Assembly: GCF_000039765.1 (NCBI RefSeq)
Contig: NC_004459.3
Span: forward strand, 2,421,127 to 2,453,126
Reading direction: 5' to 3'
DNA from: Vibrio vulnificus CMCP6
GTDB lineage: Bacteria; Pseudomonadota; Gammaproteobacteria; Enterobacterales; Vibrionaceae
Length of the DNA: 32,000 nt
Part shown: positions 16,438 to 31,708 of the stretch, one piece after another
How positions within the stretch are numbered: position 1 is the stretch's first letter
How the letters are laid out: every line of letters starts with the position of its first letter
Program-made: the position numbers and the translations under genes
Notes under the pieces: generated by a model
Databases searched by the model: none
Told to the model about the DNA's origin: nothing
The model's input: the letters and a program-made list of their open reading frames with translations, nothing else

Positions 16438-16457
16438 TTAACGGCTTACAAGTAATT

Positions 16458-16487
16458 AAACCCAGCCGTTGAAAGGCGGCTGGGTTT
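16458..16487 (+). terminator. Stem-loop (partial terminator/attenuator) between infC and rpmI
   Basis: AAACCCAGCCG-ttgaaagg-CGGCTGGGTTT followed by AATT. Located 21 nt after the infC stop. Confidence 0.55.
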
Positions 16488-16540
16488 AATTCGCCCTAAT
16501 TACGTTGTTATTAAACTACTACAATGCGGAGTTATTCATC

Positions 16541-16735
16541 ATGCCTAAGATGAAAAACAACAAAGGTGCTGCTAAGCGTTTCAAGAAAACTGCTGGTGGT
16601 ATTAAGTACAAGCACGCTACTAAACGTCACATTCTGACTAAGCGTACTACTAAGAACAAGCGTCAGCTACGTCCAAACTCTCTACTTCCAAGATGTGAAG
16701 TAGCAGCAGTTGCTCGTATGCTTCCATACGCTTAA
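16541..16735 (+). CDS. rpmI: 50S ribosomal protein L35
   Basis: 64 aa, [20 protein letters not shown]...LPYA. The start is set at the conserved MPK rather than the upstream track start. Confidence 0.95.
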
Positions 16736-16776
16736 TTCTTTTTAGTTTCATAATCGTTTAGTTTAGGAGAGACATA

Positions 16777-17130
16777 ATGCCTCGCGTAAAACGTGGTGTA
16801 CAAGCTCGTGCACGTCATAAGAAAGTTTTAAAACAAGCTAAAGGTTACTACGGTGCACGTTCACGTGTTTACCGCGTAGCTTTCCAAGCAGTTACTAAAG
16901 CTGGTCAATACGCTTACCGTGACCGTCGCGCTAAGAAACGTCAATTCCGTCAACTGTGGATTGCACGTATCAACGCGGCATCTCGTCAAAATGGTCTATC
17001 TTACAGCCGTTTCATCAACGGTCTTAAGAAAGCATCTATCGAGATCGATCGTAAGATCCTTGCGGATATCGCTGTATTCGACAAAGCTGCATTTGCAGTT
17101 CTAGTTGAAAAAGCGAAAGCAGCTCTTTAA
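16777..17130 (+). CDS. rplT: 50S ribosomal protein L20
   Basis: 117 aa, [30 protein letters not shown]... GGAGAG SD upstream. Confidence 0.97.
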
Positions 17131-17187: not shown

Positions 17188-18150
17188 CTAAAGCTTAGAT
17201 AGAGGGCTTAGGACTCCGCCCGCACCTCTTTCTAATACATGAGTGTATATCTGGGTGGTTTTAACGTCAGAATGGCCTAGCTGTTCTTGTACGGTTCTAA
17301 TATCGGCGCCGGACTCAAGTAAGTGTGTTGCAAAGCTATGTCTCAGCGTGTGGCAACTTATGGACTTGGTAATTCCAGCATCTTTTGCCGCTCTCTTTAC
17401 GGCCCTTTGAAGAGCTTGCTCGTTGATGTGATGTCTTCTGAGTAAATCGGACTCTGGATCTCTTGATAACCTATCGGATGGGAATAAATAGTGCCAGTTG
17501 AAATCCATTTCGGCTCCTTGGTATTTTCTTTGCAGAGAAGACGATAACCAAACGCCGGCGTAACCCGCAGTAATTCTGTCTTTTTGATAATAACGTAGTG
17601 CTAATGCCTCTTGCTCTTTCAAGAGGGGATATAACTCCTTAGCGAGTGTAACAGTGCGGTTTTTCCCTCCCTTGCCTTGCCAAACTCTTAGTGCTCCATA
17701 ATGGTAATCAACATCCTGGATTCTAAGACGAACGCACTCCATAACTCTTAATCCAGAGCCATATAACAGCATAATATGAAGTTTATATCTTGGATCTATA
17801 TGTTGAATAAATGCACGAAGCTCTGGCTTGGTCAACACAACTGGCAATTTTCTATCGAGTAGAGACTTCTGAAACTTAATTTCATTATTAAGCGGTGTTC
17901 TGAAATATTCCCGATAGAGAAATAGAACGGAGTTTAATGCAAGTGCTTGTGTCTTTGCGGCAACTTTTTGTTCAACAGCGAGGTGGGTTAAAAATTCTTC
18001 AACATGTTTCTCATTCAATGTAGACGGATGTGCCATCCTATGGAAATAGATGTACTGTTTAATCCAACTGATGTAAGCCTGAATCGTTTTTGTGGCATAG
18101 TGTCGAGTTCGCATATGATCTTGAACACTTAAAATAAACTGATTTTTCAT
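17188..18150 (-). CDS. intIA: Integron integrase (IntIA/IntI4-like tyrosine recombinase)
   Basis: 320 aa with catalytic contexts LLYGSGLRVMECVRLR, HTLRHSFATHLL and TQIYTHV. It carries the integron-specific insertion (WLSSSLQRKYQGAEMDFNWHYLFPS). It is divergent from an attC-bounded cassette array and sits next to rplT, as in Vibrio superintegrons. Confidence 0.95.
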   Translation of the reverse strand: MKNQFILSVQDHMRTRHYATKTIQAYISWIKQYIYFHRMAHPSTLNEKHVEEFLTHLAVEQKVAAKTQALALNSVLFLYREYFRTPLNNEIKFQKSLLDRKLPVVLTKPELRAFIQHIDPRYKLHIMLLYGSGLRVMECVRLRIQDVDYHYGALRVWQGKGGKNRTVTLAKELYPLLKEQEALALRYYQKDRITAGYAGVWLSSSLQRKYQGAEMDFNWHYLFPSDRLSRDPESDLLRRHHINEQALQRAVKRAAKDAGITKSISCHTLRHSFATHLLESGADIRTVQEQLGHSDVKTTQIYTHVLERGAGGVLSPLSKL

Positions 18151-18692: not shown

Positions 18693-18709
18693 TCTCGAAC
18701 AGCATCACA

Positions 18710-18830
18710 TAACAAACGCTTCAAGAGGGACAGCCAACGCGTGGCATTTTTACTATGCGTTGGTTTTTGTGGTTACGGTGTTATGCAGAAAGTTGGTAGT
18801 AGCGTTGGCTGCCCCTTAAGCGGGCGTTAG
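18710..18830 (+). repeat. attC 1 (121 bp)
   Basis: TAACAAACGCTTCAAGAGGG ... GCCCCTTAAGCGGGCGTTAG, giving imperfect R''-L''/L'-R' inverted ends. Confidence 0.9.
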
Positions 18831-19319
18831 TTTGCAAGAGGAAAAACGCAACCATATCGCAAGATCTAGTGTAAAGGCTCAAAGTTGAAATTGTCGTATT
18901 GGCGTTCAATTTCAGTGTTAATTAGCGTGGTAAAAATCCAAAATTGGCATCGTTTCAAGAGTAAATTTGTTCTTTGGTGTTGTGAGTTTTGGGGCCATTG
19001 AGTCGAACTTTTTTGCTTGAAACTCTGCTCTGTGAGTTTGTTGGTGCAAAAGCAGATTTACTCGCTGAAATGACGTTTTCTCTGGTGTGGCAAGTTCACG
19101 TGGTTTCAGTGGCTTTGTTGAAAGTCCGCATTGTGAGATTGGTTTTCCAAAAGCGCTTTTTGGTGTTGTGAGTTCGTTTTCTGCGGCGTTGTTTGTTCCA
19201 CGTGGTTTCATTGAGTAGCCGCTTTGAGACTACGCCTGACTTGAGTGCGTCAAGGTGCGTATGGTTTGTTGTTTGCAAAGTTTAAAATAACGTAAAATCA
19301 ACACTTTGGGTTTGCAAAC
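18831..19319 (+). other. ORF-less cassette, family A copy 1
   Basis: About 490 bp, repeated at 20717-21203 and 28331-28817 with substitutions and 1-nt indels that break every reading frame. Confidence 0.8.
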
Positions 19320-19440
19320 TAACAAACTGTTCAAGAGGGATTCGCAACGCGTGGCATTTTCACTATGCGTTGGTTTTAGTGGTTAAGGTAGCATGCAGCG
19401 GCTTTTGTATTGCGTTGCTCACCCCTTAACAGGGCGTTAG
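19320..19440 (+). repeat. attC 2 (121 bp)
   Basis: TAACAAACTGTTCAAGAGGGATTCGCAACGCGTGGC ... CACCCCTTAACAGGGCGTTAG. Confidence 0.9.
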
Positions 19441-19456
19441 GTTAATCAATGAGGAT

Positions 19457-20110
19457 ATGATGAAAACTGATAAGGTTACGGTCCGGACATTTCAGAATCG
19501 ATACAATACTTACTTAAAACTTTTGCTGGCTCTTCGTAGTGATATGGGTTGGTTTTTTGATGATTCTCATAAAGCAAATATCCTAACAGTCCCATTTATT
19601 CTGACATTGGCAGCAGCACTAGAATGCTCCTTGAATGATCATTTAATTGAGCACTTTGATGATGAGTTTGGTGATAACTCGAAGCAGATGCTTCCGGGGC
19701 TAATGTCAATGAACTTTAAAGGAAAACTCATCAATATAGTGCCAATCTTGACGAAATATAAATTCAAGCTAAATGCCGAGCACAAAGTATATGCACTATT
19801 AGTCGAGTTAATTAAGCTACGTAATAGCCTTGTACATAATAAGAGCGACTATGACTCTCACGAATTCTCGCTACTGAAAGATGATGAAGGGAACGTGCAA
19901 GGGCTACAGTATGATGACTTAGAGTCCTTAATGGGGAAAGAGGTCGATTATACGTTTGGCATAAAAGCAGATGTTGGTGCTATTCATGACGCAGTAGAAA
20001 GGTTCCATGAGTTGTTTTTAGAACATTATCGAGAATCAGACTTCAGTGGTAACGAACTTGTTATTCCGTTAGAAGAGAACAATCGAATCAAAATCGTCGT
20101 AACAGATTAA
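19457..20110 (+). CDS. HEPN-motif protein (candidate RNase toxin / abortive-infection effector), cassette 3
   Basis: 217 aa, predicted all-helical. It contains ELIKLRNSLVHN, matching the HEPN R-x4-H (RNxxxH) signature. GAGGA SD upstream; an alternative ATG lies at 19460. Confidence 0.5.
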   Translation: MMKTDKVTVRTFQNRYNTYLKLLLALRSDMGWFFDDSHKANILTVPFILTLAAALECSLNDHLIEHFDDEFGDNSKQMLPGLMSMNFKGKLINIVPILTKYKFKLNAEHKVYALLVELIKLRNSLVHNKSDYDSHEFSLLKDDEGNVQGLQYDDLESLMGKEVDYTFGIKADVGAIHDAVERFHELFLEHYRESDFSGNELVIPLEENNRIKIVVTD

Positions 20111-20112
20111 CC

Positions 20113-20234
20113 TAACAAGGCGTTCAAGAGGGATTCATGCCGCGTGGCATTTTTGGCATGCGGTCAGTTTTGGTAGTGAAAGTGGCTTGCGGAAGGTTGG
20201 TTTATGCGGCACTCACCCCTTAACGCAGCGTTAT
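20113..20234 (+). repeat. attC 3 (122 bp)
   Basis: TAACAAGGCGTTCAAGAGGGATTCATGCCGCGTGGC ... CACCCCTTAACGCAGCGTTAT. Confidence 0.9.
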
Positions 20235-20362
20235 GCAAATACTCAAATCAGCTGATTTTCCAGTGCTTAGGTCTAGGCTATTGGCGAAAATAAATTGGCT
20301 AACTGCCTACAGCATTCTGGTAAACTGCGACCAAACTAAGCGGTATTATTAGGATCCAAGCG

Positions 20363-20584
20363 ATGAGCCAAGAGCAACCAAACAACCCTTTACATGGATT
20401 AACCTTAGAGAAAATCCTTGTTCGTTTACAAGAGCACTATGGTTGGGAAGGGTTAGACAGAGAAATTCAAATTAACTGTTTTTACAGCAATCCATCAATC
20501 AAATCTTCTCTTAAGTTTTTGTGTCGCACACAGTGGGCGAGAGACAAGGTTGAGGCTTTGTATATAGATACGTTTTGCCGTTAG
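20363..20584 (+). CDS. VF530/DUF2132-like small DNA-binding-fold protein, cassette 4
   Basis: 73 aa. NPLHGLTLEKILVRLQEHYGWEGL...NPSIKSSLKFLCRTQWARDKVEALY resembles the VF530 family as I remember it. Confidence 0.6.
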   Translation: MSQEQPNNPLHGLTLEKILVRLQEHYGWEGLDREIQINCFYSNPSIKSSLKFLCRTQWARDKVEALYIDTFCR

Positions 20585-20594
20585 AACATTTGCA

Positions 20595-20716
20595 TAACAA
20601 GGCGTTCAAGTGGGATTCATGCCGCGTGGCATTTTTGGTATGCAGTGAATTTTGGTGGTGAAAGTGGTTTGCAGAAAGTTGGTTTAGGCGGCATTCACCC
20701 CTTAACGCGGCGTTAG
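20595..20716 (+). repeat. attC 4 (122 bp)
   Basis: TAACAAGGCGTTCAAGTGGGATTCATGCCGCGTGGC ... CACCCCTTAACGCGGCGTTAG. Confidence 0.9.
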
Positions 20717-21203
20717 TTTGCAAGCGGAAAAACGCAGCCATATCTCAATATCTAGTGGTAAAAGCTCAAAGTTGAAGTTGTCGTATCGGCGTTCAATTTC
20801 AGTGTTAATTAGCGTGGTAAAAATCCAAAATTGGCATCGCATCAACGGTTGATTTGTTCTTTGGTGCGGCGACTTTGGGGTTAATTGAGTCGAACTTTTT
20901 TGCTGAAACTCTGCTCGTTGAGTTTGTTGGTACAAAAGCCGATTTATTCGCTGAAATGGCGTTTTCTCTGGTGTGGTAAGTTCACTTGGTTTCAGTGACT
21001 TTGTTGAAAGTCCGCATTATGAGGTTGGTTTTCCAAAAGCGCTTTTTGGTGTTGTGAGTTCGTTTTCTGCGTCGTTGTTTGTTCCACGTGGTTTCATTGA
21101 CTAGCCGCTTTTAGACTACGCCTGACTTAAGTGCGTCAAAGCACATAAAGTTTTGCTCGCAAAGTTTAAAATAACGTAAAATCAACCTTTTGGGTCTGCA
21201 AAC
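20717..21203 (+). other. ORF-less cassette, family A copy 2
   Basis: Co-linear with 18831-19319. The frames of track ORFs on either strand are not conserved between copies. Confidence 0.8.
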
Positions 21204-21324
21204 TAACAAACTGCTCAAGAGGGATTCACAACGCGTGGCATTTTTACTATGCGTTGATTTTAGTGATTAAGGTGGTATGCAGCGGCTTCGGTATTGCGTT
21301 GTTCACCCCTTAGCAGGGCGTTAA
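21204..21324 (+). repeat. attC 5 (121 bp)
   Basis: TAACAAACTGCTCAAGAGGGATTCACAACGCGTGGC ... CACCCCTTAGCAGGGCGTTAA. Confidence 0.9.
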
Positions 21325-21339
21325 ATGCACGAGGAAGTT

Positions 21340-21795
21340 ATGGATAAACCGTTTCAGAGAATAGGCTCAAAATCTAATGCTCATGTAGGTCGTGAGTTCG
21401 AATCTGCAGCATCAAAATTTTTTCTGAGCCAAGGCATAGAACTTGTTCCCAATCTGAAAGTTGAAGTCGGCATTTCAAACTTGAAGAAACAACATGCGTT
21501 CGATCTCGGTTGTATTGATCAAAAGATCATTGTCGAGTGTAAGGCTCATAAATGGACAACAGGTGGTAATGTTCCTAGTGCGAAATTGACTGTTTGGAAT
21601 GAAGCAATGTATTACTTTTATACAGCTCCAGTCGGTTTCAGAAAAATTATGTTTGTCCTTCGTGATTTCAGTACAAAGAGGAACGAGACTTTAGCTCAAT
21701 ATTATGTCCGTACTTATAAGCACTTAATCCCAAATGATGTCGAGCTTTGGGAGTACGATGAGAACACTGAAAGTGCATCGAAACTGTGCATTTAA
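21340..21795 (+). CDS. PD-(D/E)xK-motif protein (candidate restriction-endonuclease-fold nuclease), cassette 6
   Basis: The ordered motif E (GREFESAA) ... D (HAFDLG) ... ExK (IIVECKAHKW) is typical of the PD-(D/E)xK fold. ATG 21340 follows GAGGAA; an in-frame ATG at 21325 abuts the attC. Confidence 0.5.
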   Translation: MDKPFQRIGSKSNAHVGREFESAASKFFLSQGIELVPNLKVEVGISNLKKQHAFDLGCIDQKIIVECKAHKWTTGGNVPSAKLTVWNEAMYYFYTAPVGFRKIMFVLRDFSTKRNETLAQYYVRTYKHLIPNDVELWEYDENTESASKLCI

Positions 21796-21914
21796 CAAAG
21801 CGTTTAAGACGGATTCCCAACGCTTGGCATTTTCGGTTTGCTTTGAATTTAGTGATTACGGCACAATGGTTTAGGTAGGGTGGTAGCGTTGCTCACCACT
21901 TAACGCGGCGTTAT
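21793..21914 (+). repeat. attC 6 (122 bp)
   Basis: TAACAAAGCGTTTAAGACGGATTCCCAACGCTTGGC ... CACCACTTAACGCGGCGTTAT. The stop codon of the upstream ORF is the TAA of the R'' box. Confidence 0.9.
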
Positions 21915-21950
21915 GCGATTCATGAGTGCAGCGATAAGGATAAAAATATT

Positions 21951-22589
21951 ATGTATAAAGTCGGCATTGTTTTGTTTGATGATTTTACAGATGTAGACTT
22001 CTTTCTTATGTATGACTTGCTTGGTCGAACAACTGATAGTTGGACGGTTAGCGTGCTGGGAACTAAATCTGAACACACTTCCCACCTAGGTATGAAAGTC
22101 AAAACGGACGGACCTGTTTCAGAGGTGACGAATCAAGATGTCATTCTCATTACCAGTGGTAAACGTGGTATTCCAGCGGCAATAAACGATACTAAATTTA
22201 TGTCAGCGTTGAATCTTGACCCAAATAAACAGCTAATTGGTTCAATTTGTGCGGGGTCATTCATCCTTCATGAACTCGGTTTACTTAAAGGCAAGCCATT
22301 GACGACAAATCCAGATGCTAAGGCTGTTCTACAAAGCATGGGAGGGGACGTTCAGGACCAACCTCTTGTTGTAGAGGGAAACATAGCTACTGCCGGAGGC
22401 TGTCTTTCACTGATGTATCTAATAGGTTGGTTAGCCGAGCGGCTGTTTGACTCAAATAAACGAAAAAGCATTCAAAATCAGTTGATCCCAGCTGGACAGT
22501 TAGAGCTATTCGAAGAGCTTATTTCTACAACTATCCAATCAGCTGAGTTGGCAAGCTCGCATAACAAAGCGTTTAAGAGTGACTCGTAA
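21951..22589 (+). CDS. DJ-1/PfpI-family (class I glutamine-amidotransferase-like) protein, cassette 7
   Basis: 212 aa with the nucleophile-elbow context LIGSICAGSFIL and an N-terminal KVGIVLFDDFTDVD strand. The last 9 codons read into the attC. Confidence 0.7.
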   Translation: MYKVGIVLFDDFTDVDFFLMYDLLGRTTDSWTVSVLGTKSEHTSHLGMKVKTDGPVSEVTNQDVILITSGKRGIPAAINDTKFMSALNLDPNKQLIGSICAGSFILHELGLLKGKPLTTNPDAKAVLQSMGGDVQDQPLVVEGNIATAGGCLSLMYLIGWLAERLFDSNKRKSIQNQLIPAGQLELFEELISTTIQSAELASSHNKAFKSDS

Positions 22590-22682
22590 CGCGTGGCATT
22601 TATACTGTGCGTTAGTTTTAGTGTTTAAGGCGCAATGCAGAGGCTCCGGCATGGCGTTACTCACACCTTAACGCGGCGTTAT
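22562..22682 (+). repeat. attC 7 (121 bp)
   Basis: TAACAAAGCGTTTAAGAGTGACTCGTAACGCGTGGC ... CACACCTTAACGCGGCGTTAT. Confidence 0.9.
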
Positions 22683-23029
22683 GCTTAATCAATTAAAATC
22701 AGTGGGTTATGGTTTTTCTTTGTTCCCTCAGCTTTTTGGTTTTGTGCTCGTCGGCAAGTTGGCTTAAGTGGGCGCTATTTTCGGACAGTTATTCTTTGGC
22801 GCTGAAAATTCAGAGAATTGCCTCAATCAATTTTTAGGTAAGCGCGAGGTTAGGGTGGCAGGCTCAATCAGCAATTTAATCTTAGGTTTTTGAGTATTAG
22901 CGGCCAAATTTCAATGTCTGATTTTCAAAATCATGAGTCATTTCCGTTTTTAGGTTTTGGCTTTTGTTTGTGAATCAAAGTCGAGTTAATCTTGGTTTTA
23001 TCAAAACGTAAGCCATTGAAGCTTAAGCA
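22683..23029 (+). other. ORF-less cassette, family B copy 1
   Basis: About 350 bp, repeated at 23044-23376, 26451-26798 and 28939-29293. The ATG-initiated frame stops at different points in each copy. Confidence 0.8.
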
Positions 23030-23043
23030 TAACAAAGCGTTTA
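23030..23043 (+). repeat. attC remnant (first 14 nt only, TAACAAAGCGTTTA)
   Basis: An R''/L'' start identical to attC 16, joined directly to nt ~22 of a second family B copy. The rest of the attC is missing. Confidence 0.75.
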
Positions 23044-23376
23044 TCAGTGGTTTATGGTTTTTCTTTGTTCCCTCGGCTTTTCAGTTTTGTGTTTGTCGGC
23101 AAGTTGGTTTCAGTGGGCGCTGTTTTCTGGACACTTATTCTTTGGCGCTGGAAATTCAGAGAATTGCCTCAATCAGTTTTCGCGTAAGCGCGAGGTTAGG
23201 GCAGTTGGCTCAATCAGAAATTTGAACTTGGCTTTTTGAGTTTTAGTCGCCAAATTTCAAAGTCCGATTTTTAAAACTATGAGTCATTTCGGTTTTCTAC
23301 GTTTTGTCTTTTGTTTGTAAATCAAGGTCGAGTTAATCTTGGTTCTATTAAAACGTAACCCATTGAAGCTTAAGCA
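23044..23376 (+). other. ORF-less cassette, family B copy 2 (5'-truncated, fused to copy 1)
   Basis: Begins at TCAGTGGTTTATGG, which is internal in the other copies. Otherwise co-linear with them. Confidence 0.8.
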
Positions 23377-23498
23377 TAACAAGGCGTTCAAGTGGGATTC
23401 ATGCCGCGTGGCATTTTTGGTATGCGGTGGTTTTTGGTGGTGAAAGTGGTTTGCAGAAAGCTGGTTTAAGCGGCATTCACCCCTTAACGCAGCGTTAT
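23377..23498 (+). repeat. attC 8 (122 bp)
   Basis: TAACAAGGCGTTCAAGTGGGATTCATGCCGCGTGGC ... CACCCCTTAACGCAGCGTTAT. Confidence 0.9.
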
Positions 23499-23603
23499 GC
23501 GCTATTCAAATCTTTATTAACTTGGTCGAAAATACTCAAAGTATTCATGATTGTGCTCAGACCAAAAGTTACCATGTTCTTTTTATAAATTGGGGTACGA
23601 TGC

Positions 23604-23861
23604 ATGAGTATAGATCAACAAGAACGATGGGCTAAAAATAGGGAGAAAGGATTTGCTAGATACGTCGCTAGTAACACTATCTCGTTCCTACTGATCGTTT
23701 CCTTAGTTCGTGCAGTGTTTTACTTCGCTACTCAAGACAATGCTTCGATTGAAGGCTTTATCTCCGAGCAGTCCATGACCATAGTTTTTATAGCAATAGT
23801 TCTACCATTTGTATTTTGGTTTACTTGGTTGTACCAAGAGTCAAAATATAAAAAGGATTAG
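23604..23861 (+). CDS. Small two-TM membrane protein, cassette 9
   Basis: 85 aa with two hydrophobic helices (ISFLLIVSLVRAVFYF and IVFIAIVLPFVFWFTWL). The cassette has a 105-nt leader. Confidence 0.45.
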   Translation: MSIDQQERWAKNREKGFARYVASNTISFLLIVSLVRAVFYFATQDNASIEGFISEQSMTIVFIAIVLPFVFWFTWLYQESKYKKD

Positions 23862-23875
23862 TAAAGCTGCGCGCA

Positions 23876-23997
23876 TAACAAAGCGTTTAAGAGGGATTTG
23901 GCACGCGTGGCATTTTCAGTTTGCGTTGAGTTCGGTGGTTACGGCACTGTGCGGTAGCTTTTGTATTGCGTGCCTGCACCCCTTAACGCGGCGTTAT
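23876..23997 (+). repeat. attC 9 (122 bp)
   Basis: TAACAAAGCGTTTAAGAGGGATTTGGCACGCGTGGC ... TGCACCCCTTAACGCGGCGTTAT. Confidence 0.9.
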
Positions 23998-24022
23998 GTT
24001 ACTGCACTTTACGAGTAATTGA

Positions 24023-24310
24023 ATGAATAAAAAGTTGTTAGTTGGCGGTTGTTTACTCGGTGTAACCGCTCTATTTTTTGTCGGTAAACGAGGTGGTGAG
24101 GAGTTATCGCTCCCCATGTGTGATTCCGTCCCTAAAATTGATACGCCAGTGCATTTTTTCACAGATGACTCCATTAGTGAGGCACGAATTGAAGAGTTTA
24201 TTGACTATTCAAACCTTGTTCTAGAGAACTCTTGCATTCCAATTAGAAGGACCCTTTCAGGAATCACCAAACTTGATTTGACCAGTTTTAAAAAGTCAAG
24301 ACAGTGGTAA
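24023..24310 (+). CDS. N-terminal fragment (signal/anchor region) of a split metalloprotease, cassette 10
   Basis: 95 aa beginning MNKKLLVGGCLLGVTALFFVG (signal peptide or lipobox-like). It ends near an A/T homopolymer tract (24286-24295: TTTT then AAAAA). Confidence 0.4.
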   Translation: MNKKLLVGGCLLGVTALFFVGKRGGEELSLPMCDSVPKIDTPVHFFTDDSISEARIEEFIDYSNLVLENSCIPIRRTLSGITKLDLTSFKKSRQW

Positions 24311-24359
24311 GTTACATCAACAGTTACTCCTAAATGTTGGTAGCTCGGTTCTTGAGCCA

Positions 24360-24776
24360 ATGCAAAAAGTTGGAAGTTATTATGTTCTAGTTCTTCCTAA
24401 AGACTTTCCTTTTGCAAAAGACAGTGCAGGAACTGCTCATGTAAATTTTAGTCGCAGTTTTTTGGTTCTATCTTCTGATGCAGAACTTCATGTACTTGAG
24501 CATGAGTTGGGGCATCTGGCTTGGGCATGGCACGACAACACAGCAATACATTGGTTAAAAGGGCAGCTTCTAAAAGAGCATCACAAGCAAATTAAGCCAT
24601 ATGCATTTGGGGCATTGTGTCATGAAGCGGGGACGGTAATGACTTATGCAGAGAAGCAGTTGCCAGCCTATTCATCACCGGATATCAAATATTATGGACA
24701 GGCTTGTGGCAATGCCGAAACTGCTGATAATGCACGTCATATGCGAGAGTTTGCGCTATCACTAGTAGCTCCGTAA
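24360..24776 (+). CDS. HExxH zinc-metalloprotease domain fragment, cassette 10
   Basis: 138 aa with HVLEHELGHLAWAWHD (HExxH plus a downstream H/D). This frame is open back to 24282, so it overlaps the end of the upstream fragment. Confidence 0.5.
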   Translation: MQKVGSYYVLVLPKDFPFAKDSAGTAHVNFSRSFLVLSSDAELHVLEHELGHLAWAWHDNTAIHWLKGQLLKEHHKQIKPYAFGALCHEAGTVMTYAEKQLPAYSSPDIKYYGQACGNAETADNARHMREFALSLVAP

Positions 24777-24778
24777 CA

Positions 24779-24900
24779 TAACAAGGCGTTCAAGCGGGAT
24801 TCATGCCGCGTGGCATTTTTGGTATACGGTGAGTTTGGGTGATGAAAGTGGTCTGCGGGAAGTTGGTTTATGCGGCATTCACCCCTTAACGCAGCGTTAT
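24779..24900 (+). repeat. attC 10 (122 bp)
   Basis: TAACAAGGCGTTCAAGCGGGATTCATGCCGCGTGGC ... CACCCCTTAACGCAGCGTTAT. Confidence 0.9.
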
Positions 24901-24930
24901 GCGTCCTTAAAACTTGAGTAAGGTGTACAA

Positions 24931-25356
24931 GTGGAAAGTAGAGTTGTTAAAGCTTCAAAATTCTTAGGTTTGGGCATTGTGTTGTACCCGATCGCCTATT
25001 CGTCACTTAACTTTGTTCTACCCATTCTGATTGGCGTGCTAGGTAATGAAAATCACTTCCTGGTTACAGGTTTAGAGATCATCACCTGGTTTGTGCTCCC
25101 AATTTTTTCAGTGTTCTATTTACTAGCATTTCACCAATTAGCTGGGGCGCTTAGAAAATGGCAAAAATTCGTAGGGTATATGATGGTATCAACGGCAGTT
25201 ATTGCTGAAGTATTGTTACCCTTTATCGACAGAGGTTTAGTGAGTAGATCTATTTCGTTTTTGGCTCATATGGCTGAGCTTGTCATTTTGTCCGGTTGCT
25301 TGTTGGCAATTGGTAGTCAAATGAAGCAAAGTGTCGATGTTAGCTGCAACGCATAA
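24931..25356 (+). CDS. Four-TM membrane protein, cassette 11 (GTG start)
   Basis: 141 aa with four hydrophobic segments. The only start in frame is GTG 24931, preceded by AAGG. The stop lies in the TAAC of the attC. Confidence 0.45.
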   Translation: MESRVVKASKFLGLGIVLYPIAYSSLNFVLPILIGVLGNENHFLVTGLEIITWFVLPIFSVFYLLAFHQLAGALRKWQKFVGYMMVSTAVIAEVLLPFIDRGLVSRSISFLAHMAELVILSGCLLAIGSQMKQSVDVSCNA

Positions 25357-25475
25357 CAAAGCGTTTAAGAGGGACTTGGCACGCGTGGCATTTTTAATTT
25401 GCGGTAAGTTTAGTGATTAAGGTGTAATGCGGTCACTTTTGTATTGCGTGCCTGCGCCCCTTAACGCGGCGTTAG
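25354..25475 (+). repeat. attC 11 (122 bp)
   Basis: TAACAAAGCGTTTAAGAGGGACTTGGCACGCGTGGC ... TGCGCCCCTTAACGCGGCGTTAG. Confidence 0.9.
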
Positions 25476-25498
25476 AAGAATAAGGAACAATTCCAATT

Positions 25499-26323
25499 AT
25501 GAGTAATGAAAGTAGTAACGAGAGCAATATTGAAGGAACTATCAATGCCGTAACTGGATTAGCTAAAGCTATTCCAGTTTATGAAGACGCATTACAACCT
25601 GCTGCGAAGGAAATAGGAAAGGCCTTAGGCACAGTAGCAAAAACTGTCAATGTAGCATTGGCTCCTGTCTCTGCGTTAGTTTGGGGTTATGACAAAATTA
25701 AAGATTTTGTTGATACAAAAGTGTCCGAGAAGTTATCTAATGTAAAAGATGAAGACATCGTTTCTCCTCCGCCAAATGTAGCAGGCCCTGCGCTCGAATC
25801 ACTCAAGTACACAGGTAGCATAGAAGAATTGAAAGAGCTTTATGCTAACTTGATCGCTTCAAGTATGGATAAAAATACAACTCATAAAGCTCATCCATCT
25901 TTTGTAGAAATAATTAAGCAGTTGTCATCAGACGAGGCTAAATTGCTTGTTTACTTTGCTTCATCAGGTTCTGCTCCTATTGTAGACATAAAAAATAATC
26001 GTAAAGACAAATCGGGTGGTAGATATGAGTATAGGTATTTCACCAATATTGGTGAGAAACTTAAATTGGAGAATTTGGGATTAAACTCTTCGTATTGGAG
26101 TAATTTAATTCGTTTAGGGCTTGTTGATATCCCAGATAATTTTCAACTCATTGAAGAAGGTATCTACGACGATATTATTTCTCATACGGCGGTCAAAAGT
26201 ATAGTTAGTAATATCAACAAACAAGAGGGTAGAGTTGCCGAAATAATAAAAACGGCTGTTCTTGTAACCGATTTGGGTCGTCAATTTATTGATGTTTGTG
26301 TAGTAGATCATCGAACACAATAA
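25499..26323 (+). CDS. Abi-alpha / DUF4393-like protein (candidate abortive-infection protein), cassette 12
   Basis: 274 aa. The N-terminal helix LQPAAKEIGKALGTVAKTV, central ELYANLIASSM and IIKQLSSDEAKLL match my recollection of the Abi-alpha family signature. No search was run. Confidence 0.5.
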   Translation: MSNESSNESNIEGTINAVTGLAKAIPVYEDALQPAAKEIGKALGTVAKTVNVALAPVSALVWGYDKIKDFVDTKVSEKLSNVKDEDIVSPPPNVAGPALESLKYTGSIEELKELYANLIASSMDKNTTHKAHPSFVEIIKQLSSDEAKLLVYFASSGSAPIVDIKNNRKDKSGGRYEYRYFTNIGEKLKLENLGLNSSYWSNLIRLGLVDIPDNFQLIEEGIYDDIISHTAVKSIVSNINKQEGRVAEIIKTAVLVTDLGRQFIDVCVVDHRTQ

Positions 26324-26329
26324 TTCTTC

Positions 26330-26450
26330 TAACAAACTGTTCAAGAGTGATTCGCAACGCGTAGCATTTTTACTATGCGTTGCGTTTGGTGATTAAGGTG
26401 GTATGCGGCGGCATCGGTATTGCGTTGCTCACACCTTAACAGGGCGTTAT
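26330..26450 (+). repeat. attC 12 (121 bp)
   Basis: TAACAAACTGTTCAAGAGTGATTCGCAACGCGTAGC ... CACACCTTAACAGGGCGTTAT. Confidence 0.9.
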
Positions 26451-26798
26451 GCTTAATCACGTAAAATCAGTGGTTTATGGTTTTTCTTTGTTCCCTTGGC
26501 TGATTGGTTTTGTGCTTGTCGGCAAGTCGGTTTCATTGGGCGCTGCTTTTCGGACATTTATTCTTTGGCGCTGAAAATTCAGAGAGTTGCCTCAATCAAT
26601 TTTCAGGTAAGCGCGAGGTTAGGGTAGCTGGCTCAATCAGCAATTTGATCTTAGGTTTTGAGTTTTAGCAGCCGAATTTCAAAGCCCGATTTTCAAAACT
26701 ATGAGTCCTTTCGGTTTTCTACGTTTTGGCTTTTGTTTGTAAATCAAAGTCGAGTTAATCTTGGTTCTAGTAAAACGTAAGCCGTTGAAGCTTAAGCA
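26451..26798 (+). other. ORF-less cassette, family B copy 3
   Basis: Co-linear with 22683-23029 and 28939-29293. Confidence 0.8.
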
Positions 26799-26920
26799 TA
26801 ACAAGGCGTTCAAGAGGGATTCATGCCGCGTGGCATTTTTGGTATGCGGTGAGTTTTGGTGGTGAAAGTGGTCTGCGGAAGGTAGGTTTGAGCGGCATTC
26901 ACCCCTTAACGCAGCGTTAT
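26799..26920 (+). repeat. attC 13 (122 bp)
   Basis: TAACAAGGCGTTCAAGAGGGATTCATGCCGCGTGGC ... CACCCCTTAACGCAGCGTTAT. Confidence 0.9.
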
Positions 26921-26936
26921 ATTTTTCGAGGATCCA

Positions 26937-28241
26937 ATGAGATTATCAATTGAACATCAAGCGACAAGGGTATGTGAAAGTAGTGAATACCTTTTCGGTC
27001 GTGAAGCTTTTGCAAAGAGCTTATTGAATATTTTTTCTAATTCAGAAAGTGGTTTTGTTCTAGCGATTGATGCTACTTGGGGAGCAGGTAAAACAGCTTT
27101 TATTCATCAGTTAATCCACGATCTAAAAGCAACAGAAAAAATTATTCCGATTTACTATGATGCATTTTCCAACGATTTTTCTAATGATACGTTTTTATCT
27201 ATTGGTGCGACTATATTCCATGAAGTCGAAGGCTATTTTGAGTCAACAGGTAAAAGCGTAAAGGTTAAAAAGCAGTTAGAACATCTCAAAGACTTAACAA
27301 AAAAAACCGCAGGAGAGCTGATAAAGTTATCGAGCAATTTAGCCCTTAAATCTTTGACTGCTGGAATGATTGATAACTCAGAATTAGAGAAAATAGCTAT
27401 AAAAACCTTTAATTCGGCGACTTTCGGTACACTAGAACTAGAGTTAAATGAGAAATTCAAAGCATACGAAAATGCTAAATCAAACATCCAATCGTATGTA
27501 GATGCTTTAGAATCAGTTAGCCAAAATGGTGAAAAAGTCATATTTTTCATTGATGAGTTAGATCGATGTCGCCCAGACTTTGCTGTTGAAGTTCTTGAAA
27601 AGGTAAAGCACTTATTTGCTGCTAAGAATGTGATTTTTGTTATTTCTTACAACAAGTCTCAATTGTCAAAGATAATATCTCACGTTTACGGTGTTGAAAA
27701 TAAAGATGCATTGAAGTATCTAGAGAAGTTTATTCATATAGAGGCTAATTTACCAGTTGTTGATGAGAAGTCATCAACAAGCTCTTATGAACAGTTGTTT
27801 GATAGTTTTGTTCGGGAGTTTAATATTGAATTACCAAATCAACAGCAAAGAATTACGTCGCTAAAGAATATGTTTACTTTACTGTGTCAGCCAAAGCACT
27901 TAAATATGAATAGTCGCGAGATCGAAAGGGCGTTTAGTTACGTTAGTTTCTGCTTTGCAGCTCTTCCTAAAGAAAAAGGGTCTTCGCTTTTTGAGTTCTT
28001 TCTACCGGCTGCAATGATGAAAGTAAAAAATAGTGAAATCTTCAATCAGGTATCGGAAGGGCGGTTTTTCTCGACAAGCGCAAACTATAAATGGCTTCAT
28101 GATTTCTTTAAAGAGCACTACAAAAGTTCATTGACTCCCCAAGCGTCGAACGTATTTTATGTAAAGCAGTTTGAAGAAGCGTGTGGCATAGTCTCAATGT
28201 TTAAAATGCCTACTGATGACATCATTGAAGACAAAATATAA
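26937..28241 (+). CDS. KAP-family P-loop NTPase, cassette 14
   Basis: 434 aa with Walker A AIDATWGAGKTAF and the KAP-typical Walker B context VIFFIDELDRCRPDFAVEVLEKVKHLF, then VIFVISYN and YLEKFIHIEANLP. I see no TM insertion between Walker A and B. Confidence 0.75.
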   Translation: MRLSIEHQATRVCESSEYLFGREAFAKSLLNIFSNSESGFVLAIDATWGAGKTAFIHQLIHDLKATEKIIPIYYDAFSNDFSNDTFLSIGATIFHEVEGYFESTGKSVKVKKQLEHLKDLTKKTAGELIKLSSNLALKSLTAGMIDNSELEKIAIKTFNSATFGTLELELNEKFKAYENAKSNIQSYVDALESVSQNGEKVIFFIDELDRCRPDFAVEVLEKVKHLFAAKNVIFVISYNKSQLSKIISHVYGVENKDALKYLEKFIHIEANLPVVDEKSSTSSYEQLFDSFVREFNIELPNQQQRITSLKNMFTLLCQPKHLNMNSREIERAFSYVSFCFAALPKEKGSSLFEFFLPAAMMKVKNSEIFNQVSEGRFFSTSANYKWLHDFFKEHYKSSLTPQASNVFYVKQFEEACGIVSMFKMPTDDIIEDKI

Positions 28242-28330
28242 CAAAGCATTTAAGAGTGATTCGCAACGCTTGGCAGTTTCGCTTCGCTCAAGTATAGCCA
28301 AGCGTCGCTCACACCTTAATGCGGCGTTAG
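28239..28330 (+). repeat. attC 14, short class (92 bp)
   Basis: TAACAAAGCATTTAAGAGTGATTCGCAACGCTTGGC-agtttcgcttcgctcaagtata-GCCAAGCGTCGCTCACACCTTAATGCGGCGTTAG. The ends match the other attCs, but the central region is about 30 bp shorter. Confidence 0.85.
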
Positions 28331-28817
28331 TTTGCAAGAGGAAAAATGCAGCTATATCGCAAGATCTAGTGTAAAGGCTCAAAGTTGAAATTGTCGTATT
28401 GGCGTTCAATTTCAGTGTTAATTAGCGTGGTAAAAATCCAAAATTGGCATCGTTTCAAGGGTAAATTTGTTCTTTGGTGTTGTGAGTTTGGGGTCATTGA
28501 GTCGAACTTTTTTGCTGAAACTCTGCTCTGTGAGTTTGTTGGTACAAAAGCCGATTTACTTGCTGAAAGGATGCTTTCTCAGGTGTGGCAAGTTCACGTG
28601 GTTTCAGTGACTTTGTTGAAAGTCCGCATTGTGAGATTGGTTTTCTAAAAGCGCTTTTTGGTGTTGTGAGTTCGTTTTCTGCGGCGTTGTTTGTTCCACG
28701 TGGTTTCATTGACTAGCCGCTTTGAGACGAAGCCTGACTTAGGTGCATCAAAGCACATAAAGTTTATTGTTCGCAAAGTTTAAAACAACGTAAAATCAAC
28801 CTTTTGGGTCTGCAAAC
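28331..28817 (+). other. ORF-less cassette, family A copy 3
   Basis: Co-linear with 18831-19319 and 20717-21203. Confidence 0.8.
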
Positions 28818-28938
28818 TAACAAACTGCTCAAGAGGGATTCACAACGCGTGGCATTTTTACTATGCGTTGATTTTAGTGATTAAGGTGGTATGCGGCGGC
28901 TTTGGTATTGCGTTGCTCACCCCTTAGCAGGGCGTTAT
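28818..28938 (+). repeat. attC 15 (121 bp)
   Basis: TAACAAACTGCTCAAGAGGGATTCACAACGCGTGGC ... CACCCCTTAGCAGGGCGTTAT. Confidence 0.9.
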
Positions 28939-29293
28939 GCTTAATCACCTAAAATCAGTGGTTTATGGTTTTTCTTTGTTCCCTCGGCTTGTTAGTTTCG
29001 AGTTTGTCGGCAAGTTGGCTTTTTTGAACGCTGCTTTTCGGACACTTATTCTGTGGCGCTGGAAATTCAGAGAATTGCCTCATTCAATTCTCGGGCAAGC
29101 GCGAGGTTGGGGCGGTGGCTCAATCAGAAATCCATTTCTAGGCTTTCAAACTTCAAACTAGATTTGCCAAAATTCCTAACCTGAATATCAAAACTATGAT
29201 TCATTTCAGTTTTCTAAGTTTTGGCTTTTGTTTCTGAATCAAAGTCGAGTTAATCTTGTTCCCAGAAAAACGTAACCCATTGAAGCTTAAGCA
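28939..29293 (+). other. ORF-less cassette, family B copy 4
   Basis: Co-linear with the other B copies but more diverged in its central third. Confidence 0.75.
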
Positions 29294-29415
29294 TAACAAA
29301 GCGTTTAAGTGGGATTTGGCACGCGTGGCATTTTCGGTTTGCGTTGGGTTCGGTGATTAAGTCGCTGTGCGGTAGCTTTTGTATTGCGTGCCTGCACCCC
29401 TTAACGCGGCGTTAG
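29294..29415 (+). repeat. attC 16 (122 bp)
   Basis: TAACAAAGCGTTTAAGTGGGATTTGGCACGCGTGGC ... TGCACCCCTTAACGCGGCGTTAG. Confidence 0.9.
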
Positions 29416-29427
29416 CCGTCATGGAGC

Positions 29428-29462
29428 TTGCTATACTCAAAGTGATAGAATAGTATCACTTT
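29428..29462 (+). promoter_or_regulatory. Cassette-internal sigma70-like promoter with overlapping operator palindrome (TA module)
   Basis: TTGCTA (29428-29433), 17-nt spacer, TAGTAT (29451-29456). The inverted repeat AAAGTGATA (29439-29447) / TATCACTTT (29454-29462) spans the -10 element. Confidence 0.65.
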
Positions 29463-29485
29463 AGTATTTCTTTGGAGCAGCTCTC

Positions 29486-29743
29486 ATGAAAGTAGAACTA
29501 GTTACATCACTCAAACGCCAAGCAACAAAGATCCTTGCCGATCTCCACGACACTAAAGAACCAGTGTTAATTACCGAACATGGTAAGCCATCGGCATATC
29601 TGGTTGATGTTGATGATTACGAGTTTATGCAAAATCGTTTAGCGATTCTTGAGGGGATTGCACGAGGTGAACGTGCATTAGCTGACGGTAAAGTGGTGAG
29701 TCACGATGAAGCCAAGGACAAAATGTCAAAATGGCTGAAATAA
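29486..29743 (+). CDS. Phd/YefM-family antitoxin, cassette 17
   Basis: 85 aa. MKVELVTSLKRQATKILADLHDTKEPVLITEHGKPSAYLVDVDDYE is a typical YefM/Phd N-terminal fold sequence. GGAG SD; overlaps the toxin gene by 13 nt. Confidence 0.85.
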   Translation: MKVELVTSLKRQATKILADLHDTKEPVLITEHGKPSAYLVDVDDYEFMQNRLAILEGIARGERALADGKVVSHDEAKDKMSKWLK

Positions 29744-30033
29744 TCTGGACTGAGCCAGCGCTATCCGACCTCAATGATATCGCTGAATACATCGCACTTG
29801 AAAATATCGTAGCTGCAAAACAATTGGTTCAAGCGATCTTTTCTAAAGTCGAGCGCTTAGAGGCTTTCCCTGAATCGGGTCGCATTCCGCCTGAACTAGA
29901 ACATCTAAGTTATCGTGAAGTTGTAGTTAATCCGTGCCGTATTTTCTATAAACAAGACGGCGACAAAGTATTTATTTTGTTTGTTATGCGTGCTGAGAGA
30001 GACTTGCGTAAGTTCCTATTGAGCAAGCAATAA
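29731..30033 (+). CDS. ParE/RelE-superfamily toxin, cassette 17
   Basis: 100 aa. IIWTEPALSDLNDIAEYIA...FPESGRIPPEL...YREVVVNPCRIFYK...VFILFVMRAERD is typical of ParE-type plasmid-stabilisation toxins. Confidence 0.8.
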   Translation: MAEIIWTEPALSDLNDIAEYIALENIVAAKQLVQAIFSKVERLEAFPESGRIPPELEHLSYREVVVNPCRIFYKQDGDKVFILFVMRAERDLRKFLLSKQ

Positions 30034-30051
30034 CCTTTGGGAATGAACGGC

Positions 30052-30174
30052 TAACAAACTGTTTAAGAGTGATTCGCAACGCGTGGCATTTTTACTATGC
30101 GTTAGGTTTAGTGTTTAAGGTGTGACATGCGGTGGCTTCGGTATTGCGTTGCTCACACCTTAACAGGGCGTTAG
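30052..30174 (+). repeat. attC 17 (123 bp)
   Basis: TAACAAACTGTTTAAGAGTGATTCGCAACGCGTGGC ... CACACCTTAACAGGGCGTTAG. Confidence 0.9.
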
Positions 30175-30601
30175 GCAAAAGGCAGAAAAGTTCTTTGTTC
30201 TAATTTTTTGTTCCCTCTGGCAGTTCGCTTTTCTTAGTCGGCAATCCCGTATTGTCGGCTCTAATTCTTAAATCTCTTCAACCGTAAAACATGCCAAAGT
30301 TCGTGGGTTGCCTCATTGGGTTTCAGTGTTGGTTGGTGTTGAGCTTCACTGGCTCAAAGTGTGGAAAGGGCAAGTTAGTCGAAGCTTTCATTATTGCTGT
30401 CATTTCGCAGCTTTGAATTTCTCAGGTTCAAAAGCTGCTTTGTCGCGGATAAGTCGCATTTCGTGGTTGTTATAAGTGAGGCTGTAACATAGTGACTTCA
30501 GTAGTTCTTGAATCACAAAAAGTCAGTGGGAGATTGGTTGCTTATCGTGTTTAAGGTATTCTGCTTTCAAAGCAAGTTAGTGAGTAAATTAGAAATTTGC
30601 C
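30175..30601 (+). other. ORF-less cassette 18 (distant relative of family B)
   Basis: No ORF of 60 aa or more on either strand. The 5' part shares TTTGTTCCCTC...GTCGGCAA blocks with family B. An internal hairpin lies at 30407-30438. Confidence 0.6.
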
Positions 30602-30693
30602 TAACAAAGCATTTAAGAGTGATTCGCAACGCTTGGCAGTTTCGCTTCGCTCAAGTATAGCCAAGCGCCGCTCACACCTTAATGCGGCGTTAT
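30602..30693 (+). repeat. attC 18, short class (92 bp)
   Basis: Differs from attC 14 at only 2 of 92 positions by eye (GCGTCGC vs GCGCCGC, and the terminal base). Confidence 0.85.
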
Positions 30694-30728
30694 ATTAATC
30701 AAAAAATTCGAGCACAAAAGGAGTTTCT

Positions 30729-31100
30729 ATGAACTATGATGTTATCGCTTTGGCATGTGAACAATTAGATTATCGCGATAAGTTACGCCTTGCACAGTTG
30801 TTAATTCAGACCGCTCGAAAGGAAGAAGAAACAGTTAACCCTCAAGAGCGAATAATAGAATCAAAACCTTCTATTCCTGAAGCTATTGTAGAGGAGAAAG
30901 AAATTGACACTATTTCCTACGTATATGAACGTTTGCTTAAATTAAGACCAGCGAAAGCAAAATCGCTAACGAACTCCATTAAAGCAATGTTTCAGTTTCA
31001 AGGTGGTATTTCTGAAGCAGAAGTTTCCGATATTGTCAGTGAACTCCAACATAGAAAGTTAGTTAAGCTGACTAACAATAAAGTCGATTACAAAGATTAA
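30729..31100 (+). CDS. Hypothetical protein, cassette 19
   Basis: 123-aa ORF with an AAGGAG SD 6 nt upstream. Helical and charged; no motif recognised. Confidence 0.5.
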   Translation: MNYDVIALACEQLDYRDKLRLAQLLIQTARKEEETVNPQERIIESKPSIPEAIVEEKEIDTISYVYERLLKLRPAKAKSLTNSIKAMFQFQGGISEAEVSDIVSELQHRKLVKLTNNKVDYKD

Positions 31101-31102
31101 TA

Positions 31103-31226
31103 TAACAAGCAATTTAAGAGGGATTCACAACGCTTGGCATTTTTGCTTCTACTTCAATTTTAGTGTTTATGGCACAATGATTTAGGTTTGGGTGGAGGCG
31201 TTGTTCACCCCTTAATTGGGCGTTAT
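31103..31226 (+). repeat. attC 19 (124 bp)
   Basis: TAACAAGCAATTTAAGAGGGATTCACAACGCTTGGC ... CACCCCTTAATTGGGCGTTAT. Confidence 0.85.
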
Positions 31227-31241
31227 GTTTTAAGGATAAAA

Positions 31242-31577
31242 ATGAAACATTCAGTTTTTATGAGTTTAGTATTTTTGACTGGGTGTGCTGCTAGTCAGGC
31301 AGCACCAATAGAAGTTCTCAGTTATGAAGCTGATGATAACAATTACACCTTGATAGCTATTAGTGAAAAAAAGCTAACAAGTTCAAATGGTGAAATCGAT
31401 AGTGTTTTCGAGGAAAAAATTAAAGAGCTTTGCCCGTATGGTTATTTAGTTTCGGAACCAACAGAAGATAATGGCCCCGATGGTACATGGCTAAAAAGGC
31501 ACATGGAGTACTATATAATGGCGAACAATGTCAAAAGTGCTCATTCTTACTCTAAAAATGTAAGTTGCACGCTTTGA
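31242..31577 (+). CDS. Small lipoprotein, cassette 20
   Basis: MKHSVFMSLVFLTGCAAS gives a signal peptide plus lipobox L-T-G-C. AAGGA SD 5 nt upstream. The track start at 31188 would lie inside the attC. Confidence 0.6.
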   Translation: MKHSVFMSLVFLTGCAASQAAPIEVLSYEADDNNYTLIAISEKKLTSSNGEIDSVFEEKIKELCPYGYLVSEPTEDNGPDGTWLKRHMEYYIMANNVKSAHSYSKNVSCTL

Positions 31578-31586
31578 TTACAAACA

Positions 31587-31708
31587 TAACAAAGCGTTTA
31601 AGAGGGATTTGGCACGCGTGGCATTTTCGGTTTGCGTTGGGTTCAGTGATTAAGTCGCTGTGCGGTAGCTATTGTAGTGCGTGCCTGCACCCCTTAACGC
31701 GGCGTTAG
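31587..31708 (+). repeat. attC 20 (122 bp)
   Basis: TAACAAAGCGTTTAAGAGGGATTTGGCACGCGTGGC ... TGCACCCCTTAACGCGGCGTTAG. Confidence 0.9.

Follow-up and report, generated by a model that had tools for sequence, protein, structure and literature searches.

The right half of a 32,000-nucleotide stretch of the Vibrio vulnificus CMCP6 genome (contig NC_004459.3, positions 2,421,127 to 2,453,126 of the forward strand; the whole stretch is called the window below and is numbered from its first letter) is a Vibrio sedentary chromosomal integron (SCI), and one of its cassettes encodes a KAP-family P-loop NTPase of 434 amino acids. By analogy with anti-phage KAP proteins of other lineages, this minimal cytosolic NTPase, carried in a promoterless SCI cassette, probably acts as an autonomous single-protein defence against phages or other mobile genetic elements (MGEs). 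The evidence lies in the independent movement of the cassette between Vibrio arrays, in an intact NTPase core, and in the family and genomic contexts of its relatives.

The KAP Cassette

The cassette has G^TTRRRY core sites at both ends (the caret marks the junction), its own attC at the 3′ end, and a place in an array linked to an integron integrase gene (intI); the KAP gene is its sole open reading frame (ORF). The cassette and its parts are listed here with positions in the window.

26917-28326, forward strand: the whole integron cassette, 1410 bp, with G^TTATATT at its left junction and GCGGCG^TTA at its right (junctions 26916/26917 and 28326/28327; identical cassette with other flanks in loci L081, L082, and L083)
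26929-26933, forward strand: Shine-Dalgarno-like GAGGA, 4 nt before the ATG (direct reading)
26937-28241, forward strand: gene for the KAP-family P-loop NTPase, 434 amino acids, with a TAA stop that overlaps the start of the attC (ORF call, Pfam, PADLOC)
27078-27101, forward strand: Walker A WGAGKTAF, residues 48-55, with GAGKT at 49-53 (W48, G49, G51, and K52 invariant among 37 homologues)
27189-27515, forward strand: residues 85-193, a polar helical insertion separating the two Walker motifs, its tip (134-168) flexible (AlphaFold2 [AF2] helices 85-104, 107-143, 150-161, and 164-193)
27543-27608, forward strand: Walker B with the KAP signature FFIDELDRCRPDFAVEVLEKVK, residues 203-224, including FFIDELDRCRP at 203-213 (D206, E207, L208, D209, R210, C211, and P213 invariant)
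27762-28238, forward strand: variable C-terminal helical half, residues 276-434, candidate lid and sensor (16-17% identity to distant homologues; model helices 277-419)
28239-28329, forward strand: 91-nt attC of the cassette, TAAC...GTTA (start at 28238 or 28239, length 91-92 nt; repeat family D12)

The arrays at L081, L082, and L083 hold the same leader, gene, and 91-nt attC as the window, and the sequence before GCGTTA^TATTTTT and after GCGGCGTTA^ differs in each. Because an identical cassette occurs with different flanks in three arrays, its boundaries are fixed, its movement is of the integrase type, and no neighbouring gene travels with it. The KAP cassette is mobile and autonomous between Vibrio arrays, with no conserved partner gene. 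Most cassette neighbours of the KAP copies lack a functional assignment, and the neighbouring cassettes in the window are unrelated. The exact protein was found in other assemblies; one entry with 100% identity, P0001, carries the species name Vibrio diabolicus.

An initial annotation, made from the letters alone, had recognized a one-gene cassette at 26921-28330; the cassette stands, and its position shifts, since comparison with the three other arrays places the true junctions 4 nt further left. It had also described the cassette as the largest in the window and visibly AT-rich. Both descriptions hold: at 1410 bp it is the longest of the 19 complete cassettes, and the GC fraction of its non-attC body is the lowest among them (0.348; mean 0.390, standard deviation 0.023). 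With other cassettes at 0.349, 0.352, and 0.362, it is AT-rich without being a lone outlier.

A Soluble KAP NTPase

Residues 22-333 of the protein match positions 1-283 of the 293-position Pfam profile KAP_NTPase (PF07693) at E = 1.5e-43, scoring 149.6 bits where the cut-off is 20; with both Walker motifs intact, this bears out the family assignment first made by eye. Conservation was read from an alignment of 37 homologues extending down to 25% identity, in which R327 and E330 (in the motif REIER), within the variable C-terminal half, are invariant along with the Walker residues listed above. Regional identity to distant members is highest in the core (54%) and lowest in residues 276-434, the pattern that would be expected if the C-terminal half determined specificity.

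Two or four transmembrane (TM) helices inserted in the P-loop domain are typical of many KAP members, though not universal, and are absent here. The insertion at residues 85-193 sits where membrane KAPs carry these helices; it has lysines and polar residues throughout, and AF2 renders it as a helical hairpin. Over 19-residue windows, Kyte-Doolittle (KD) hydropathy peaks at 1.05 in the protein as a whole and at 0.80 in the stretch separating the Walker motifs, far short of the 1.6 or so expected for a TM helix, in agreement with the earlier reading of the protein as free of TM helices. No hydrophobic segment follows Walker A directly, where the Tmn/YobI type has a TM hairpin, and no Tmn model appears among the PADLOC matches. 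An amphipathic, membrane-seeking role for the insert was also considered and is not supported by its hydrophobic moment (at most 0.40) and low hydrophobicity.

A TM hairpin in the insert was found in none of the 120 homologues examined; homologue segments with KD of at least 1.6 fall for the most part in one helix around residue 345, which aligns to the AF2 helix 345-364 of the window protein. The initial annotation had taken solubility as a departure from the KAP norm, which does not hold: PifA lacks TM helices and QatA is soluble, so that, with no TM hairpin among the 120 homologues, solubility is unremarkable for KAPs of the defence type.

Relatives and Their Genomic Contexts

The best PADLOC match is to PDC-S20 (model PDLC04959; E = 1.1e-72, 244 bits, residues 20-380); three other PDC-S20 models match at E = 1e-50 to 3e-34, and further matches are to PifA (E = 3.2e-24, NTPase part only) and QatA (E = 1.6e-12). 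By these profiles the window protein falls within both Pfam KAP_NTPase and PADLOC PDC-S20, and is not a QatA, PifA, or Tmn. An exhaustive HMMER search returned 7143 cluster representatives at E < 1e-10, of which 496 reach E < 1e-30, and the best 150 are nearly all 425-500 amino acids long. Genomic contexts of distant relatives (26-38% identity) were taken from 79 loci among the matches listed, in which the KAP ORFs are mostly 404-497 amino acids; close relatives were located by exact-protein look-ups. Judged by length and predicted topology, the window protein belongs to a large family of minimal KAP proteins without TM helices, and the clade from Vibrio, Aliivibrio, Shewanella, and Psychromonas (52-71% identity) makes up a single minor branch of that family.

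Relatives with 52-67% identity are carried on cassettes in V. parahaemolyticus, in V. fluvialis (the second cassette after intI), and in Vibrio sp. B1FIG11, and a KAP lineage of 30-32% identity occupies cassettes in V. cholerae and V. anguillarum. The Shewanella copy in a cluster of small ORFs and the Psychromonas copy both keep the leader junction (G/A)TTATATTTT; a downstream attC was looked for at these two loci and not identified. A Pseudoalteromonas relative sits in an operon with an FRG-domain gene, and 99 plasmid records hold KAP relatives.

The three largest neighbour clusters of the distant relatives are HsdM-, HsdS-, and HsdR-like, with one representative of each confirmed by Pfam. 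The gene hsdS is an immediate neighbour in eight of the 79 listed loci, and Type I specificity subunits make up 8 of 147 immediate neighbours. The order hsdM-hsdS-KAP-hsdR recurs in five loci (L011, L012, L020, L027, and L078), with related layouts in two more (L008 and L028). PrrC occupies the same slot in the prr locus as KAP does in this order. Embedding of distant homologues in Type I restriction-modification (R-M) operons, together with the PDC-S20 match, supports the association of the protein with defence that had been proposed at the outset.

Several loci of relatives hold further elements. In Salmonella houtenae (L097 5962-7284; AGRM01000003.1 426354-427676), a 440-amino-acid homologue with 36% identity over residues 20-281 directly follows P4-alpha-like primase-helicase genes; the setting is that of a satellite-like island, and a relation to the recently named single-gene KAP system Reve is possible. 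In V. fluvialis, P2-like phage genes (L091 9731-13281; an S24 repressor, CP76, and a GPA replication protein) lie no more than three cassettes beyond the KAP cassette that stands near intI, which points to insertion of a prophage or satellite within the array or beside it. The array of the V. parahaemolyticus homologue includes a retron-like pair (L087 148-2039), in which a reverse transcriptase (RVT_1) comes after an STM3845-family protein, and DUF2971 cassettes lie nearby.

Structure Model

An AF2 model built from the 37-sequence alignment (mean pLDDT 81.7, pTM 0.77) consists of a P-loop core, the long helical hairpin 85-193 between the Walker motifs, and an all-helical C-terminal half; pLDDT falls below 50 in the insert tip (134-168). 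No sequence relative with a solved structure was found in the Protein Data Bank. Foldseek nevertheless ranks a structure from there first, that of RdrA, the ATPase of RADAR that forms heptamers (E = 6e-7, TMq 0.49), ahead of ORC4/Cdc6, ClpX, and the STAND NTPases of resistosomes and apoptosomes.

Comparison with Known Systems

Like PDC-S20 members, which are about 450 amino acids long, the window protein is the product of a single gene with a KAP NTPase core, and it matches their profile strongly. It differs in being borne on an integron cassette rather than embedded in an R-M locus, in its length (434 amino acids versus mostly 440-480), and in its C-terminal half, where the last 100 or so profile positions are unaligned and identity to distant members is as low as given above. 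PDC families are defined through embedding in defence loci, and 145 candidates were reported without validation (Payne et al., bioRxiv 10.1101/2024.01.29.577857). For PDC-S20 the defining context is a position within or adjacent to Type I R-M, BREX, or DISARM, which some distant homologues occupy and the window gene does not. A text search for the name PDC-S20 gave no match, and the supplementary material of Payne et al. does not mention it.

PifA of the F plasmid, the founding KAP member, excludes phage T7; it also has a KAP domain without TM helices, is a single protein borne on a mobile element, and is triggered by T7 proteins (PMC13001434). Only positions 28-322 of its 720-position profile align, the large C-terminal part of PifA is missing from the window protein, and the membrane leakage associated with PifA should not be assumed here. 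QatA is likewise a soluble KAP NTPase, and the DNA-binding complex of seven or eight subunits as which it was purified (PMC13279940) offers a plausible model for the core; however, the QatA profile NF041923 scores only 51 bits against a cut-off of 600, and no qatB, qatC, or qatD lies beside the window gene. QatA has in addition a C-terminal domain of its own, and part of Qat defence does not require QatA.

EF_KAP with related KAP fusions (PMC13552941) and Reve (PMC13586616) are validated anti-phage systems that are based on a KAP P-loop domain and encoded, as is the candidate described here, by single genes on mobile elements. Defence by EF_KAP depends on Walker B (PMC13552941), but that protein has two TM helices and a 322-amino-acid C-terminal region; Reve, a single-gene system from P4 hotspots, was set beside the window protein by description only, and no close homology to these systems came to light. 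RdrA, the AAA+ component of RADAR, is a defence ATPase that forms heptameric rings (PMC9994260). At about 830 amino acids it shares roughly 15% identity with the window protein and works with the deaminase RdrB, whereas no partner stands beside the window gene. The anti-phage cassettes of SCIs (Darracq et al. 2024) are similarly streamlined, single-gene units far from the Pc promoter with a functional-looking attC, although the window protein is a candidate only and no KAP or P-loop protein is mentioned among those systems.

Proposed Function and Alternatives

In the mechanism envisaged, the conserved NTPase core would assemble into a ring-like oligomer, as RdrA and QatA do, and the fast-evolving C-terminal helical half, the flexible insert tip, or both would recognize a phage component. 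Binding or hydrolysis of NTP would then drive a conformational or oligomeric switch that halts infection; candidate outputs are growth arrest, NTP consumption, and action on phage DNA or protein complexes. The cassette would be stored until integrase shuffling, or transcription from the gene-less cassette upstream, switched the gene on. More tentatively, it is possible that a 434-amino-acid KAP protein with no effector domain, membrane anchor, or partner suffices for defence. The ring itself would then be the effector, for instance by exhausting NTP or by acting as a clamp or remodeller on DNA or protein assemblies of the phage, with specificity determined by the hypervariable C-terminal half.

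Expression of the gene bears on this proposal. The KAP ORF begins 20 nt past the G^TTA crossover of the preceding attC, a leader with no room for a promoter of the cassette's own. Standing 14th in the array, about 8.7 kb from intI, the gene is probably weakly expressed until shuffled towards attI. Vibrio SCIs have been described as defence biobanks, with distal defence cassettes of V. cholerae acting once moved to attI (10.1101/2024.07.02.601686), and most gene-less cassettes show sense promoter activity that is not predictable in silico (PMC11014356). The gene-less cassette directly upstream (26447-26916) could supply a promoter.

Several observations weigh against a defence function. A search of the forward strand from 26300 to 26936 found no sigma-70-like consensus site, and with no promoter in the cassette and none detected upstream, the gene may be silent in this strain. 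The protein contains no recognizable effector domain (nuclease, pore, TIR, or Sir2), which makes the antiviral output the weakest step of the proposal. PDC-S20 is a candidate family only, and the authors of DefensePredictor left PDCs out as unvalidated. Oligomeric state, ligand, and output are drawn from analogues with 10-16% identity. Among the listed distant loci, 71 of 79 have no R-M gene directly adjacent, and some homologues adjoin housekeeping genes, for example glnS in three loci, so not every KAP context is defence-like.

The R-M contexts themselves invite another explanation, an accessory or guard role in Type I R-M comparable to that of PrrC with EcoprrI; the lone cassette copy would then be inert or reliant on an R-M system elsewhere in the genome. 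Eight HsdS neighbours and a recurrent gene order among the listed loci speak for it; we nevertheless regard it as unlikely, since the cassette travels alone between arrays, the same 71 loci lack an adjacent hsdS, and the close homologues lie in cassettes, in clusters resembling CALINs (clusters of attC sites lacking integron integrases), or in the FRG operon rather than in R-M loci. Embedding of this kind is, moreover, typical of autonomous systems too (bioRxiv 10.1101/2024.01.29.577857). About equally improbable is an accessory role other than antiviral defence, in which the protein would act against other mobile elements, excluding plasmids, integrative and conjugative elements, or satellites, or would serve as an NTPase chaperone or assembly factor for a niche trait, and defence-like contexts would reflect mere residence in variable regions. 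Such a role would suit the functionally unassigned cassette neighbours and the homologues on plasmids and satellites, and phage restriction has been suggested not to be the primary role of PifA (PMC13552941); it accounts less well for the specific embedding in R-M operons, for a neighbouring Abi_alpha cassette (below), and for the validated KAP defences of other lineages (PMC13552941, PMC13586616).

A toxic or addictive element that stabilizes the array, in the manner of toxin-antitoxin (TA) cassettes, the NTPase being harmful when deregulated, would fit an SCI setting in which TA cassettes are numerous (the window has one at 29486-30033) and the frequent toxicity of abortive-infection proteins. 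Yet the KAP cassette has no antitoxin-like second ORF, an antisense ORF of 105 amino acids (27233-27550) is without support, and the cassette is found beside varied neighbours; there is little to commend this explanation. That the protein is a canonical membrane-embedded KAP whose TM helices were missed is effectively refuted: the insertion does stand at the TM-helix position, and a few distant homologues reach KD values of about 1.6-1.67 at residues 117-123, but the hydropathy maxima given above, the polar insert, and the lack of any amphipathic membrane-helix signal contradict it. Single-protein defence by the cassette-borne NTPase thus remains the reading we favour.

Soluble KAP defence proteins and integrons as defence stores are both already known, and the value of the window protein is as a practical test case rather than as a new type of system. 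KAP NTPases have been tied to phage exclusion since PifA, and the family was defined in 2004; no mechanism is established for them. Those studied so far mostly come with a membrane anchor, a large additional domain, or a partner protein, while a compact, soluble, partner-free, and naturally mobile unit lends itself to cloning, placement at attI, mutation, and purification. If defence is confirmed, a P-loop class would be added to the defence cassettes stored in Vibrio integrons, and a naturally minimized, integrase-mobilizable unit would provide the simplest tractable model for the KAP mechanism. The cassette would also provide the first test of a PADLOC family with hundreds of divergent members, in which a null phenotype would itself be informative about guilt by embedding.

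The Short attC

The attC of the KAP cassette is one of two short sites in the window, as had been noticed at the outset (28239-28329 and 30601-30692, 99% identical to each other); the remaining 18 of the 20 sites are 120-123 nt long and resemble Vibrio cholerae repeats (VCRs). The bottom strand of the 91-nt site, folded as single-stranded DNA, pairs its R box over 5 bp; beyond an internal loop come an L stem with bulges and a terminal stem of 12 bp. The energy of this fold is -18.3 kcal/mol (z = -3.0), and none of 200 shuffled sequences was as stable. The site is a canonical attC of intermediate length and represents a widespread minority class: it terminates unrelated cassettes in L081 and L082 and a gene-less cassette of the window (30171-30689, 519 bp, no ORF of at least 60 amino acids; attC 30601-30692); in all, no fewer than four other cassettes across three Vibrio arrays carry it, as does one V. 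anguillarum cassette. The term "atypical," applied to it in the initial annotation, is consequently not warranted.

Nor does the site mark a different origin for the gene, as had been proposed. The closer homologues, in V. parahaemolyticus and V. fluvialis (67% identity) and Vibrio sp. B1FIG11 (52%), carry ordinary host-type attCs of about 120 nt, so the short attC says little about where the gene came from; a V. cholerae relative (32%) also has an ordinary attC of this length. The V. anguillarum cassette ends in the same 91-nt class, its attC (L093, about 6320-6410) matching the 30601-30692 copy over the compared stretch, including the GCGCCGC variant, and its KAP protein is only 30% identical to that of the window. 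One attC on two KAP lineages so far apart hints at gene-independent acquisition or exchange of attCs; exchange, or a common cassette-forming host, may explain it.

The V. anguillarum locus comes from a record named "Vibrio phage Va_90-11-286_p16" (GenBank MK672802.1, 25937-37000), which holds infC, rpmI, rplT, an integrase gene, and an attC-flanked cassette array. At least this part of the record is a V. anguillarum chromosomal integron and not a phage.

The Integron Array

The elements that anchor the array and adjoin the KAP cassette are as follows.

17188-18150, reverse strand: intI, integron integrase of 320 amino acids, anchor of the array (NCBIfam TIGR02249, E = 8.7e-143, score 475 bits, cut-off 265)
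26798-26919, forward strand: VCR-like attC of about 121 nt belonging to the preceding gene-less cassette, whose R′ box GTTA forms the 5′ junction of the KAP cassette (repeat families D1/D2/D8, boundary table)

Three small ORFs upstream of intI (16048-17130) occupy the position that infC, rpmI, and rplT have in the annotated V. anguillarum record. Downstream of intI lie 20 attC sites (18709-31707) and 19 complete cassettes. The sites and cassette boundaries were defined from repeat families and then by a start-anchored search for attC sites; a plain scan for GTTRRRY was uninformative for core sites, with 63 matches against 71 expected.

Two cassettes upstream of KAP is a cassette (25472-26446) whose ORF (25499-26323) encodes an Abi_alpha/DUF4393 protein (PF14337, E = 3e-53; PADLOC candidate PDC-S47, E = 1e-63), and the identical protein is recorded for V. 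vulnificus CMCP6 as well as for several further species of Vibrio. Because only the gene-less cassette separates it from KAP, two candidate defence cassettes stand one cassette apart. The TA cassette mentioned above is filled by a Phd/RelE-type pair (TIGR01552, E = 9e-11; TIGR02385, E = 3.5e-7), as is usual for array-stabilizing TA cassettes.

A cassette of 608-610 bp without a convincing ORF is present in three copies with 81-93% identity (18827-19436, 20713-21320, and 28327-28934), the last adjoining the KAP cassette directly downstream; it is possibly a promoter or RNA cassette. The gene-less cassette upstream of KAP (26447-26916) belongs to a second family with common repeats of 170-300 nt, related to 20231-20712, 23495-23993, and 28935-29411 and to internal repeats at 22561-23296. 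In the 120-nt attCs, a run of T comes after a short GC hairpin (ATGCCGCGTGGCAT TTTTGG) at 26823-26836 and at equivalent positions of other VCR-type sites, with a terminator-like score on the sense strand; this hairpin might attenuate read-through from cassette to cassette.

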